Source: Candidatus Thorarchaeota archaeon
GTDB lineage: Archaea; Asgardarchaeota; Thorarchaeia; Thorarchaeales; Thorarchaeaceae
Reading direction: 5' to 3'
DNA: 10,939 nt
Assembly: GCA_016839445.1 (NCBI GenBank)
Contig: JAEOUG010000047.1
Span: 1-10,939 of the forward strand
The translations under genes and the position numbers were made by a program. The notes under the pieces are model-generated. The model was given only the letters and a program-made list of their open reading frames with translations, searched no databases and was not told where the DNA came from. Below, piece after piece: positions 7,269 through 10,939 of the stretch. Numbering within the stretch: the stretch's first letter is position 1; each line of letters begins with the position of its first letter.

Positions 7269-7365
7269 CATTTCATGCGTCGGAACACTCCGAGGGGGGA
7301 CCAGAGCGACACTTTCATAACCGTTGCACTTGGACCAACAGTCAATTCCTTGTTGGGTGCGACCA

Positions 7366-9147
7366 ATGACAGAGAAGGCCAAATTGCGTTCGCCGATTGT
7401 GACAGTTCTAGGCCACATTGACCACGGAAAGACCTCTCTCCTAGACAAGATGCGCGGCACTGGGGTCCAAGAGAGAGAGGCCGCTGGCATCACGCAACAC
7501 ATTGGTGCTTCATTCTTCCCAACAGAAACAATCAAGGCAATATGCGGAGACCTCCTGCAGTCGGTCAAGACAGAGCTTACGATAGACGGACTTCTGTTCA
7601 TAGACACTCCGGGGCATGAGGCGTACCTCAATCTCAGGAGGAGAGGGGGAGCCATTGCAGATATTGCCATTCTTGTCGTCGATGTGAATGAGGGAGCTCT
7701 CACTCAGACCTATGAGTCCTTGAAGATACTCCGATCGGGTAAGACCCCATTCTTGGTTGCCGCGAACAAACTAGACAAGGTTCCAGGCTGGAAGCACAAG
7801 GATGGAATGAACCTCCTTCAGTTGATGGCAGCACAGCCAAAGTCAACACAGATGGAGCTTGACCGCAGGATCTACGAGATTGTTGGAGCTCTTTCCGCAA
7901 ACGGGATACAATCTGAGCGTTTTGACCGTATCAAGGACTTCTCAAAGAACGCAGCGATAATACCTACGAGCGCCAAGACGGGCGACGGGATTCCAGAGCT
8001 ACTCATGGTTCTCTCTGGTCTGACGCAGCAATACATGAAGGAGCGCTTGGTTGTGTCAAAGGGCCCAGCCCGCGGAGCGATTCTCGAAGTCAGAGAGGAA
8101 ACAGGTCTTGGAATCACTCTGGACACAATCATCTATGATGGTGTGTTGAAGAAGACAGACACTGTTGTAGTCGGAGGTCTTGACGGAGTAATAGTTGCCA
8201 AGATAAGAGCGCTGTTACAGCCAAAGCCTCTGGATGAGATTCGGGACCCGAAGGAGAAGTTCACTAGCGTAGATCAGGTGCATGCAGCTGCCGGCGTGAA
8301 GATTGTTGCTCCGGACATAGAGGGCGCTGTGGCAGGTGCGCCTGTGTACTCCACGAGCCGCCCAGATGAGGTTGAGGGACTTGTGAAGAAAGTCCGAGAG
8401 GAAGTAGCGGCCATCCGGATCCAGACCGACAAATCGGGTGTTGTTCTGAAGACGGACACACTCGGCTCACTTGAGGCAGTGACTCAGTTCTTCCGTGACC
8501 GGAAAATCCCTGTGCGTGCAGCAGATGTCGGACCAATTGTCAAACGAGACATCATTGAGGCACAGGCTTCAGGTGACTCAGATCCCGTAAACGCCGTTGT
8601 TCTTGGCTTCAACGTCAAAGTAGCTCCTGGTATCGAAGACCTTGCTGCGGAGTTTGGAGTTGAGATTTTCCTCAATGAGGTGATCTACCGCCTCTACGAT
8701 GACTACAATGCATGGATGATAGTGAAGAGAGAGCAAGCCAAGGCCGAGTCGCTTGGTTCCATTATCAGACCGGGAAAACTGGAGTTGATGCCCGAGTACA
8801 TCTTCAGACACAGCAATCCAGCAGTGGTGGGCGTCAAAGTGCAAGGAGTCATTCGGCCAAGAACTGGGCTCGTCAATTCAGAGGGCAAGAGGATTGGAAC
8901 CATACTCCAGATCCAAGATAGGAGCCTGGCAATCGATGAGGCCACAACAGGAATGGAAGTGGCCGTTTCCATTCGAGGACCTACTGTTGGACGGCAGATT
9001 AAGGAGGACGACGTACTGTACGTGGACGTCCCTGACAAGCACGTTCTGGCAATCAGAAAGAAGTTCTTGGATGACCTCTCGCCCCCGGAGAAGGAGGTCT
9101 TGGACGAGTACGTGGAAGTCAGACGAGCTGCTGGCGCTTTCATCTAG
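7366..9147 (+). CDS. infB: Translation initiation factor aIF5B (IF-2)
   Basis: LRSPIVTVLGHIDHGKT, REAAGITQHIGA, DTPGHE, NKLD and DTLGSLEA motifs. ATG 7366 with SD GGGTG; about 593 aa. Confidence 0.97.
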   Translation: MTEKAKLRSPIVTVLGHIDHGKTSLLDKMRGTGVQEREAAGITQHIGASFFPTETIKAICGDLLQSVKTELTIDGLLFIDTPGHEAYLNLRRRGGAIADIAILVVDVNEGALTQTYESLKILRSGKTPFLVAANKLDKVPGWKHKDGMNLLQLMAAQPKSTQMELDRRIYEIVGALSANGIQSERFDRIKDFSKNAAIIPTSAKTGDGIPELLMVLSGLTQQYMKERLVVSKGPARGAILEVREETGLGITLDTIIYDGVLKKTDTVVVGGLDGVIVAKIRALLQPKPLDEIRDPKEKFTSVDQVHAAAGVKIVAPDIEGAVAGAPVYSTSRPDEVEGLVKKVREEVAAIRIQTDKSGVVLKTDTLGSLEAVTQFFRDRKIPVRAADVGPIVKRDIIEAQASGDSDPVNAVVLGFNVKVAPGIEDLAAEFGVEIFLNEVIYRLYDDYNAWMIVKREQAKAESLGSIIRPGKLELMPEYIFRHSNPAVVGVKVQGVIRPRTGLVNSEGKRIGTILQIQDRSLAIDEATTGMEVAVSIRGPTVGRQIKEDDVLYVDVPDKHVLAIRKKFLDDLSPPEKEVLDEYVEVRRAAGAFI

Positions 9148-9194: not shown

Positions 9195-9508
9195 TGCGGC
9201 GGGTAGGGCCGGGTCGTTTGCCGCGACCTGTAACCGGAATGGCAATACCGGGGCCAGTAACCGAATTGGAGAGTGAACCGAGAAATCAGCGGGTCCAGTC
9301 GCAGGACGTTGACGTGCGGTCTCTGGAGTCTGTCACAGCCACAACAGCATTCGAAGGTCTGCTGCGAGTGGCATAAACCGTCGAACCGGGCCAGGCCCTG
9401 GCGGGAGCAGTCCTAAGGCGGGGTGGTGGAGCCCCAGAGGGTGCCGCATTGAGAAATGCACTGATTCGCCCGTTGACGAACGACACACGATAACTAGGAG
9501 CCGTCGCA
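9195..9508 (+). ncRNA. ffs: Archaeal signal recognition particle RNA (7S RNA)
   Basis: Helix 1 is UGCGGCGG (9195-9202) / CCGUCGCA (9501-9508). Alu domain: helix 2 GGCC/GGCC, helix 3 GGUCG/CGACC, UGUAA motif, helix 4 CCGG/CCGG, kissing loops UUGCC/GGCAA. Helix 5 segments AAUCAG/CUGAUU and CUCUGG/CCAGAG. Helix 6 GCCAC/GUGGC and CAGCA/UGCUG. Helix 8 SRP54 motif GCCAGG-CCC-nnnn-GGG-AGCAG. Length about 314 nt. Confidence 0.93.
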
Positions 9509-9579: not shown

Positions 9580-9691
9580 GCTGGGGTATCCAAGCCTGGT
9601 ATGGAGCTGGATTGCTATAGGAAGCGAGAAGCAATCCTGCAAACATCCAGTGTCGTAAGACTCGAGGGTTCGAATCCCTCCCCTAGCGCCA
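9580..9691 (+). tRNA. tRNA-Ser(GCT) with 27-nt intron at 37/38 (9618-9644); CCA encoded
   Basis: Acceptor stem GCTGGGG/CCCTAGC with G73 and CCA. D-stem TCC/GGA. Anticodon stem CTGGA/TCCAG with TT-GCT-A. Variable hairpin GTC-GTAA-GAC. T-arm GAGGG-TTCGAAT-CCCTC. Strict BHB: central TTGC/GCAA, two 3-nt bulges, outer AGGA/TCCT. Confidence 0.94.
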
Positions 9692-9737
9692 CTTCTTCTT
9701 AGAATCCGGCTGCGCCTAATGAATCGATAGGAGAGTT

Positions 9738-9779
9738 TAGGAAAAGGAGAAGACACTGAAGCAGGATGTACCGCTTCAG
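9738..9779 (-). terminator. Hairpin plus pyrimidine/U tract after small ORF 2
   Basis: Minus strand reads CUGAAGC-GGUACAUCCU-GCUUCAG followed by UGUCUUCUCCUUUUCCU. Confidence 0.55.
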
Positions 9780-9865
9780 CGTCTGAAGTAGGCTTCAGTG
9801 ATTGCTTGAGTAGAGATGCGCTTGTTGAGAGCCTTTCTCTCGGACCTGATCTTGTCGAGTGCCAT
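9776..9865 (-). CDS. Small basic peptide, 29 aa (MALDKIRSERKALNKRISTQAITEAYFRR), unknown function
   Basis: ATG is 4 nt after a strong SD, GAGGTGA, which overlaps the upstream small ORF's stop. The geometry is like that of the r-protein genes here. A terminator follows, and the peptide resembles the upstream one. Confidence 0.6.
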   Translation of the reverse strand: MALDKIRSERKALNKRISTQAITEAYFRR

Positions 9866-9869
9866 TCTA

Positions 9870-9977
9870 TCACCTCACTACAGTTGTGTACGCGTAGGCA
9901 AGAGCATCAGTTGACTGGGCCTTGCCGGTCTTGTTCTTCAGCACAGATGTGTTGGGATTGTTAGTTGTTAGAGCCAT
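9870..9977 (-). CDS. Small peptide, 35 aa (MALTTNNPNTSVLKNKTGKAQSTDALAYAYTTVVR), unknown function
   Basis: ATG lies about 33 nt downstream of a TTATATA box, implying a short leader. It ends in a TGA-TAG double stop and shares MAL...NK...ST-x-A-[LI]-x-x-AY with the downstream peptide. Confidence 0.55.
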   Translation of the reverse strand: MALTTNNPNTSVLKNKTGKAQSTDALAYAYTTVVR

Positions 9978-10009
9978 GATAGTTCACAAGGAATACTACC
10001 CAGAATCAG

Positions 10010-10017
10010 TATATAAT
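10010..10017 (-). promoter_or_regulatory. TATA box for the small-peptide operon
   Basis: CATTATATAC on the minus strand, at a suitable distance from ATG 9977. Confidence 0.55.
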
Positions 10018-10062
10018 GCGGAGCCACGAATCAGGGTCACAGAACGAAGTCACATAATGTTA

Positions 10063-10079
10063 CTAGCTGCTGCAGCTAG
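10063..10079. repeat. Perfect 8-1-8 palindrome CTAGCTGC-T-GCAGCTAG
   Basis: Directly visible, about 45 bp upstream of the small-peptide TATA box. Confidence 0.7.
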
Positions 10080-10115
10080 AGTGAGTGTTCTGAGCACCTA
10101 GACCCATAATCACGG

Positions 10116-10535
10116 CTATTCTATGTGAAGACGGTTGTCACAGAAGGGGCAAAGGTACACATCAGCGTCTACTGGCAATGCGTTGCTGATGTCAAACGAG
10201 TGACCGCAGTTAGGACAGCGATAGGTCTCTCCTAGTGAATCACGTTCAGCAGTCAGGGCATGCTTCCTCATAGTTTCAAGGATGCGGTCATCCTCAGAAA
10301 CGTCAGTGTGTGCAATCGAGCGTCCCTGAGCCCAGCGGAATGTTGCGTACAGAAGAAACACGATTAGTGGCATGTACATGAACATGTAGACTGGAATCAT
10401 GTCCAAGGGCAGACTGATGATTATGCCGTAGAACCCAATAAGAGCAAGCACTAGTGCGAAGATGAAGACTGCCCATCTTCCGAGGTTCGGAACACGTTCA
10501 TCCTGATAGGATCCTGGATAGTCACTATCCATCAT
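10116..10535 (-). CDS. Hypothetical membrane protein with two TM helices and C-terminal Zn-ribbon
   Basis: Hydrophobic segments WAVFIFALVLALIGFYGIIISL and IPVYMFMYMPLIVFLLYATF; CPNC...CPFC near the C-terminus. Confidence 0.8.
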   Translation of the reverse strand: MMDSDYPGSYQDERVPNLGRWAVFIFALVLALIGFYGIIISLPLDMIPVYMFMYMPLIVFLLYATFRWAQGRSIAHTDVSEDDRILETMRKHALTAERDSLGETYRCPNCGHSFDISNALPVDADVYLCPFCDNRLHIE

Positions 10536-10649: not shown

Positions 10650-10939
10650 CTACTTGGCTCTAGGAGTGACCTTCTGGACAATACCGACAGCCACGGTCAT
10701 ACCCATGTCTCGTACAGCGAACCTGCCGAGCTGTGGGAAGTCCTTGTAGCTCTCAATGACCATTGGCTTGAGCGGCACAAGGGTGGCAATCATGGATTCT
10801 CCCTTCTTGACGAAGTCGGGATTCTCCTCGATGACCTGTCCAGACCTCTGGTCAAGCTTCTGCAGAATCTTGTCGAACCTGCACGCGACCTGAGCGGTGT
10901 GAGCATGGATGACTGGTGTGTATCCAACAGTGATTGCGC
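10650..10939 (-). CDS. tuf: Translation elongation factor aEF-1alpha, C-terminal part (5' truncated by window; absent from ORF track)
   Basis: Minus-strand translation: [95 protein letters not shown], which is EF-1alpha domain III. Confidence 0.97.

Follow-up and report, generated by a model that had tools for sequence, protein, structure and literature searches.

A multi-copy family of about 30-residue proteins in one family of Asgard-like archaea

Organization of the locus and extent of the family

The stretch of DNA analysed here (the window) comprises 10,939 nucleotides (nt), positions 1 to 10,939 of contig JAEOUG010000047.1 from a Candidatus Thorarchaeota archaeon (GCA_016839445.1; genome G000), and its minus strand carries two open reading frames (ORFs) for very short proteins, ORF1 and ORF2. 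An initial annotation, made from the sequence of the window, had described a TATA box, ORF1 ending in TGA-TAG, a Shine-Dalgarno (SD) sequence built into that stop, ORF2, and a hairpin with a T tract, and all of these elements were found on the minus strand where it had placed them. From 5' to 3' on that strand, the locus is built as follows:

10048-10064, minus: palindromic operator-like site AGTAACA-TTA-TGTGACT (family consensus AGTCACA-N3-TGTGACT)
10022-10041, minus: third half-site and a block resembling a B recognition element (BRE), TGTGACCCT-N5-GTGGCT, conserved genus-wide
10017-10010, minus: TATA box ATTATATA (family consensus TATATATAC), beginning 40 nt 5' of the ORF1 ATG
9978-9989, minus: short conserved leader TTGTGAACTATC with the partial SD GTGA; TTGTGAAaTATcATG is kept in the aligned loci
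9977-9870, minus: ORF1, a type-A micro-protein of 35 amino acids (aa), MALTTNNPNTSVLKNKTGKAQSTDALAYAYTTVVR; TGA stop included, then TAG; profile match E 1.1e-17
9876-9870, minus: SD sequence GAGGTGA, formed by the last Arg codon of ORF1 and its stop, overlapping the TGA
9865-9776, minus: ORF2, a type-B micro-protein of 29 aa, MALDKIRSERKALNKRISTQAITEAYFRR; TGA stop included; profile match E 3.4e-13
9741-9784, minus: intrinsic-terminator-like hairpin (14 bp at 9784-9751) and T-rich tract, overlapping the last codons of ORF2

The spacer between ORF1 and ORF2 is 4 nt long. The folding energy of the terminator hairpin was -25.2 kcal/mol, which none of 200 shuffles equalled (z = -5.6). Both window peptides carry the motif S-T-x-A-[LIV]-x-x-A-Y, followed by Arg.

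A DNA search with positions 9700-10115 revealed three further copies in the same genome, on contigs C97, C157 and C43, at 82-87 % identity, and 2-8 matches in each of 24 congeneric genomes. The conserved DNA block consists of approximately 90 nt 5' of the ORF1 start and extends into the ORF as far as codon 16. The initial annotation had proposed a genome scan for more peptides with the motif. The regular expression [ST].[DQEN]A[LIVM]..AY, which is derived from the feature under study itself, was run on the 46,839 small ORFs of 15-80 aa in the genome that start with ATG; 9 matched, and each of these lies in one of four intergenic loci. Two of these hits, C43:2706-2813 and C97:12137-12235, were new ORFs, and the loci around them had come independently from DNA similarity. 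A tenth family ORF, without an ATG, is located at C43:2813-2891, so that the genome holds 10 family ORFs in four loci. The hidden operon of the initial annotation is therefore not singular but one of four family loci in this genome, and the genus has six syntenic classes of such loci.

A profile search of the collected loci gave 107 matches, which represent 78 distinct peptides of two types. Type A (32-36 aa) reads MALTTNxxNTSVLKNK...ST.AL.YAY..RR, and type B (27-32 aa) has MALAK, a basic stretch, and ...ST[DE]A[IV]..AYFRR; the C-terminal ends of the family peptides are rich in Tyr and Arg. The mutual similarity of the two window peptides, as seen in the initial annotation, was not significant for that pair alone (BLASTP E = 0.97) and became evident with the family profiles. 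Their profile-profile comparison (hhalign probability 98.6 %, E 6.7e-16) shows homology between types A and B. In the profile search every one of the 28 genomes of the genus was positive, with 3-13 matches each and 232 in total, as were 78 of 87 genomes and 16 of 17 genera of the order; related genomes are not independent samples, and these counts give the breadth of the family, not the number of events. In a 400-genome sample of the phylum, 75 of the 85 genomes from the taxonomic family of the window were positive, plus the window genome, and there was no match at E <= 0.001 in the 314 genomes of other families, which doubled as a false-positive control.

Among 1.84 billion protein cluster representatives, 53 matched at E <= 0.001. 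Inspection of 51 of these showed 50 family-like peptides of 29-72 aa and one 229-aa repeat protein; the 51 do not include two matches of 2655 and 1347 aa, each with several short matching stretches. Twelve cluster members were looked up, of which two were named 'hypothetical protein' and ten had no name. Searches of Pfam, NCBIfam (E <= 1), PADLOC and PHROGs returned no family for ORF1, ORF2 or the relatives tested, a profile of 77 sequences found no PDB chain at E <= 1, and the ESM Atlas gave no usable match for ORF1 or for P0014, a database protein described below. We found no description of the family in the literature, where the supplementary tables of small-protein atlases could contain such sequences. 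As judged from these sequence comparisons, the peptides form a multi-copy family of approximately 30-residue proteins that is confined to one Asgard-like archaeal family and was previously undescribed.

Selection on the reading frames and arrangement of the loci

Positional orthologues of the locus were defined by the same EF1A/Zn-ribbon and tRNA/signal recognition particle (SRP) RNA flanks in genomes G001, G013, G008 and G024. The initial annotation had pointed to this interval in relatives as a place to look for conserved frames, SD sequences and synonymous-biased substitutions, and frames and SD sequences proved conserved there, with none of the refuting patterns that it had named for frames, start codons, SD or indels. 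Both ATGs and the SD core GAGGT were invariant, every indel inside the ORFs was 3 nt long, and the hairpin and GTCTTCTCnTTTT were kept; the locus in G024 has one extra type-B copy. The pooled ratio of non-synonymous to synonymous differences per site (pN/pS) was 0.52 in frame for type A (38 sequences) and 0.55 for type B (40 sequences), compared to 1.06-1.15 in the two shifted frames. Third codon positions varied most in both types, with mean pairwise differences per codon position of 0.24/0.21/0.39 in type A and 0.39/0.34/0.61 in type B. The residues of the motif were fixed with a free third position, as seen for A25 (GCT 24, GCC 7 and GCA 5), A29 (GCT 14, GCC 13 and GCA 7) and the Thr of type B (ACT 16, ACA 12 and ACC 10), and the MAL codons of type B drift at the third position in the same way. 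Start codons, SD sequences and ORF length were kept across 16 genera, and the profile matches listed contained no internal stop, with open frames of approximately 29-45 aa. We consider it very probable that these are real, selected coding genes. The earlier reading of the locus as a unit of two diverged paralogous micro-proteins that resemble nothing known thus gained support from orthologue conservation, frame-specific substitutions and the empty libraries.

Among 55 distinct arrays, 42 had two family ORFs, 5 had three, 1 had four and 7 had one, and some of the one-ORF arrays were cut by contig ends. Successive family ORFs were 0-7 nt apart in 40 of 55 pairs, and each of these 40 junctions had an SD-like motif. 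The upstream stop at the 40 A-to-B junctions was TAA in 33, TGA in 4 and TAG in 3, and the frame relation was random (21 in frame versus 19 out of frame). For comparison, the stops of ORFs of at least 250 aa in the genome are TAG in 51 % (697 of 1370), TGA in 39 % and TAA in 10 %. The preference for TAA in type-A ORFs that closely precede type B probably arises because GGAGGTAA serves as the SD sequence. In the window, type B starts 4 nt after the stop of type A and takes its SD sequence from the last codons of type A, which suggests that the two peptides are produced jointly by translational coupling.

Clustering of the flanking ORFs by BLASTP (>= 80 aa, 77 loci) sorted the loci of the genus into the six syntenic classes, and no neighbour was common to different classes. 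Phage and plasmid collections, searched by blastn, and IMG/VR, searched with the promoter pattern, gave no match. The loci are stable chromosomal positions. When the type-A unit of the window (9870-10072) was compared with those on C97, C157 and C43, the four units of G000 were 78-87 % identical to each other and 68-79 % identical to the compared units elsewhere, positional orthologues included. The type-A units of G001 showed the same pattern, being closer within the genome than between genomes. The type-A unit, promoter and ORF together, therefore evolves in concert, presumably by gene conversion.

The surroundings of the window locus contain the following genes:

7324-9147, plus: aIF5B
9197-9506, plus: archaeal SRP RNA (Rfam, 98 bits)
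9580-9688, plus: tRNA whose anticodon loop contains a 29-nt insertion and whose variable arm is long (Rfam, 44.1 bits; missed by ARAGORN)
10116-10535, minus: ORF of 139 aa that has hydrophobic stretches and, at its C-terminus, a CxxC...CxxC Zn-ribbon (Pfam match weak and below the cutoff, E 1.4e-4)
10650-10937, minus: C-terminal end of EF1A

Rfam models matched the SRP RNA and the one tRNA near the locus and nothing else. Genome-wide, ARAGORN called just 19 tRNAs, so that its count of those with introns is probably too low. The 139-aa Zn-ribbon ORF also adjoins a peptide locus in five other loci from four genomes, and a scan of genome contigs with this protein gave one Zn-ribbon match, which was irrelevant. 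The window locus of G000 is flanked by EF1A and the Zn-ribbon ORF. The neighbours at its other loci are a desulfoferrodoxin gene, an ORF that is ScpB-like by eye and an ORF that by eye resembles 3-hydroxyacyl-CoA dehydrogenase. The initial annotation had used the SRP/tRNA/tuf neighbourhood as a hint to function; this link to SRP RNA, tRNA and EF1A was dropped because the other three loci and the other classes have different, unrelated neighbours.

The promoter module and a third reading frame

The upstream regions of 37 full-length type-A ORFs were aligned and share TAGTCACA-N3-TGTGACT, TGTGACCCT, GTGGCTtCGc-TATATATAC, CTGAG and TTGTGAAaTATcATG. Judging from archaeal promoter architecture, the TATA box probably acts as a promoter element. 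The pattern TGTGACCCT-N5-GTGGCT occurs exactly 4 times in the genome, once 5' of each of the four type-A ORFs. The start region of the mRNA is A/C-rich and has less structure than its shuffles (z = +1.62), 191 of 200 of which gave a fold at least as good; a structured RNA in the conserved 5' block was rejected on this value. Taken with the third-position conservation over codons 1-15 of type A, this low degree of structure suggests that selection acts on the initiation region itself.

With up to one mismatch allowed, the palindrome was found at 142 sites in the 28 genomes of the genus, compared to 10 sites for a reversed-pattern control. Sites away from the peptide loci carry the same module, consisting of the palindrome, TGTGACCCT, GTGGCC..GC and TTTATATA. 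In five genomes it precedes a gene whose 413-aa product has a Bactofilin domain (42.7 bits), including G000:C98:1682-2923, where the operator site is at G000:C98:1592-1608 (L078; also L068, L069, L074 and L075). It also precedes a nitroreductase-family gene in two genomes (L070 and L077) and a gene for a membrane protein of approximately 370 aa in four (L071, L072, L073 and L076). A divergent TPR-like ORF of approximately 160 aa lies alongside at the membrane-protein loci. The gene for a 124-aa winged-helix protein (HTH_45, 26.5 bits; C98:1170-1544) ends approximately 50 nt before the operator site on C98. Elsewhere, a true actin is encoded in the genome (Pfam Actin, 440.6 bits), which agrees with the Asgard label used in the initial annotation. 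The shared module suggests that the peptide genes may belong to a regulon of mixed content.

A third ORF, type C, follows type B at many of the loci. The 70-aa database protein P0014 consists of a 29-residue type-B peptide, Q, and a 40-residue extension ending in ...VEDVLMWEAT. It matched 52 of 86 genomes of the taxonomic family; the position of the Q is a stop in the genomes examined, and most full-length matches had exactly one TAG. Five database proteins have Q at the TAG position. We collected 20 distinct type-C ORFs of approximately 35-40 aa, ending in ...[IV]T.E[ED]VL[ML][WL]EAT, from three syntenic classes (loci L007, L022, L026, L027, L029, L030, L034, L042, L049, L054, L056-L062 and L064-L066). 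All except one (19/20) share the frame of the preceding type B, 18 come after a TAG, and 18 have a start codon exactly two codons past the stop. The A-to-B junctions described above are strikingly different from this rigid arrangement of frame, spacing and stop codon. The sole type-C ORF of G000, at C157:18926-19036 (+), lies behind a TGA and has a GTG start, and the window locus has no type-C ORF. The variant loci L056-L067, one per genome in 12 genomes, have a different type A, MYRMKLTN...TT.AIGYAY.YRR, with B and C behind it in the same frame. Their promoter differs, with GGTTGG-N5-CAAACC beside the TATA box, and they adjoin a divergently transcribed gene for a protein of 265-291 aa that had weak PadR/HTH matches only. 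This variant class was not found in G000, a genome that is 89.8 % complete.

The type-C data are most simply accounted for by separate initiation at the nearby ATG, and read-through at the B-C TAG is possible. Recoding of TAG as pyrrolysine is unlikely because TAG is the commonest ordinary stop of the genome (697/1370 long ORFs) and no tRNA with a CUA anticodon was found among the 19 called by ARAGORN, which misses intron-bearing tRNAs in this 89.8 % complete genome, with no search made for pyl genes. A more elaborate arrangement, to which we give a low probability, would be a three-part system of basic A, basic B and C with its acidic helix end, in which the stop of B is a deliberately leaky TAG and B alone and a B-C fusion are made from one message in a regulated ratio. 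With the bactofilin-domain gene, which has the same operator, it would form a cell-state regulon specific to the Asgard-like family.

Proposed role, alternatives and known systems

An AlphaFold2 (AF2) model of ORF1, based on an alignment of 77 sequences, showed a helix at residues 23-33, which corresponds to the motif, and residues 1-22 without regular structure, at a mean predicted local distance difference test score (pLDDT) of 65. In the model A25 and A29 are one helix turn apart and would provide a small-xxx-small face on an amphipathic C-terminal helix, and each peptide would have a basic N-terminal tail for which no structure is modelled. The read-through product B-Q-C was predicted with helices at 19-35 and 61-68 and no confident packing (predicted template modelling score, pTM, 0.23). 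A prediction of an A+B complex (alignments A4 and A5) scored 0.02 against a mark of 0.32, controls were not run, and this is evidence neither way on the heterodimer considered in the initial annotation. A PIP-box-like feature and an HbYX-like C-terminus, each seen in just a part of the family, were considered and dropped.

The minus strand at 9741-10064 is one locus of a lineage-restricted micro-protein family. Its conserved promoter, made up of the palindromic operator-like site, the additional TGTGAC half-site and the TATA box, is followed by type A, type B and a terminator. We propose that the peptides fold only upon a partner; the C-terminal helix would dock onto a cellular target that the peptides have in common, with the basic tails in contact with an acidic surface or nucleic acid. 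In this role they may be small regulators or adaptors that are switched on with the other operator-bearing genes, and the operator shared with the bactofilin-domain, nitroreductase-family and membrane-protein genes suggests a stress or cell-state response. We favour a regulator or adaptor because of the combination of a basic unstructured tail, a conserved amphipathic helix, an SD-coupled pair, and an operator in common with cytoskeletal and redox genes. The partner-folding mechanism by itself is tentative, and the explanation as a whole, mechanism included, is close to evenly balanced, tilting slightly towards doubt.

Several observations weigh against this proposal. A pN/pS of approximately 0.5 is moderate constraint only, and conservation is poor in the middle of the peptides. 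In codons 1-15 of type A the third positions are conserved too, and some of the constraint there acts on the nucleotides and not on the protein. The genomes of the genus are related, and counts within it are not independent. No partner was identified, and the locus classes have no neighbour in common. Confidence in the AF2 models is low (pLDDT 65, pTM 0.26 for ORF1), and the putative link to a regulon consists of a common DNA motif only. The sole RNA run touching the window (X20) covers 9204-9502, the SRP RNA alone, so that transcription and translation of the locus were deduced from conservation; the DNA runs contain parts of the locus.

Peptides of this kind might instead be precursors of modified or exported products (ribosomally synthesized and post-translationally modified peptides, RiPPs; signals; or antimicrobials) whose maturase and exporter are encoded elsewhere, in the way that a single enzyme can serve precursor genes scattered in many copies. 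This would fit the 3-13 scattered paralogous short ORFs per genome, the conserved recognition-like motif beside variable stretches, and the C-termini rich in Tyr and Arg. However, among the flanking ORFs no maturase, protease or transporter gene was common to the six locus classes, and no signal or known leader family was found in Pfam or NCBIfam. The layout also seems unlike the usual pairing of a conserved leader with a hypervariable core, with conservation at the C-terminal end and variability in the centre. Type A has a conserved N-terminus, a variable middle and the C-terminal motif, and in type B only MAL(A)K and the motif are conserved. We regard a precursor role as unlikely. A specific candidate of this kind, a PqqA-like cofactor precursor, was rejected. 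PqqA has an invariant acidic residue, three residues and then Tyr (E-x3-Y), with the pqq genes adjacent. In the present peptides Asp fills the acidic position in no more than 38 % of type A and 55 % of type B sequences, and the first Tyr varies as well; no cofactor-synthesis gene was found among the named neighbours, and the remaining neighbours had no Pfam match or were unscanned.

A toxin-antitoxin-like or defence module, in which the basic A and B peptides are the harmful or effector components, checked by an antisense RNA or, where type C is present, by its more acidic C-terminal end, is a poorer explanation that we hold to be very unlikely. The multi-copy small ORFs with conserved 5' regions do resemble multi-copy type I toxin loci, an overlapping regulatory RNA would be compatible with the nucleotide-level constraint on codons 1-15 of type A, and type C has an acidic, hydrophobic helix at its end (...EEVLMWEAT). 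Yet the peptides have no hydrophobic transmembrane stretch and no PADLOC match, the loci are syntenic, stable and non-mobile and are absent from the searched phage, plasmid and viral collections, and the window locus, having no type-C ORF, would be without the proposed antidote. The initial annotation had likewise set the peptides apart from typical type I toxins, which agrees with their polar and basic composition and a longest apolar run of approximately 3 residues.

That the conserved element is non-coding (a promoter, an RNA element or a repeat) with incidental ORFs is barely credible: the best-conserved DNA does lie mostly upstream or at the very start of coding, from approximately 90 nt 5' of the ATG to codon 16, with third positions conserved in those early codons and paralogues homogenized within a genome, but purifying selection is frame-specific, invariant motif residues have free third positions in both ORF types, type-B ORFs were detected by the protein profile where DNA similarity is lost, start codons, SD and ORF length persist in 16 genera, and the 5' mRNA region (z = +1.62) argues against a structured RNA.

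Annotation of Asgard-like archaea ignores such short ORFs, and the whole family, with approximately 8 copies per genome, falls below the cutoff of ORF callers; its sequences are partly in public databases already, only as unnamed or 'hypothetical' entries. Should the peptides prove to be abundant regulators, the proteomes on which comparative work on these archaea relies would have to include them. The operator in common with a cytoskeletal (bactofilin-domain) gene may offer an entry to a lineage-specific regulon in archaea that are studied for the origin of eukaryotes. The loci are also natural material for work on archaeal translation, both for coupling through an SD sequence made of the last codons and stop of the upstream gene and for possible read-through at an in-frame TAG.

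When compared with known systems, the peptides belong to none of the families considered. Leaderless two-peptide bacteriocins of the enterocin L50A/L50B type are hydrophobic or Trp-rich, amphipathic and membrane-active, and genes for immunity and ABC transporters are adjacent. The present genes resemble them in encoding adjacent paralogous peptides of similar length, without a leader and 4 nt apart, and presumably co-transcribed, but their products are polar and basic, and there are no recurring immunity or transporter neighbours. Multi-copy type I toxins (Ldr, Ibs/Sib and Hok; the TisB kind) consist of a transmembrane helix together with an antisense RNA. They have in common with the present family several copies per genome, ORFs of approximately 20-50 aa, and a highly conserved promoter and 5' region, whereas the peptides described here have no hydrophobic segment. 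The small acid-soluble spore proteins (SASP) of Bacillus are abundant small proteins encoded by scattered monocistronic paralogues. As an analogy, their genes share the scattered paralogues, a conserved regulator-dependent promoter and a strong terminator with the present family; the sequences are unrelated, and SASP are approximately twice as long and monocistronic. Like the present peptides, the archaeal micro-proteins of Haloferax and Methanosarcina that are known from Ribo-seq or peptidomics are shorter than 50 aa, are missed by ORF callers, stand alone with a promoter and terminator of their own, and probably act by binding larger partners. The small proteome of Haloferax is the subject of a published report (PMC10117724). 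The micro-proteins of these two genera have no sequence relation to the family described here, which is multi-copy, arranged in SD-coupled arrays of paralogues and found in one Asgard-like family.

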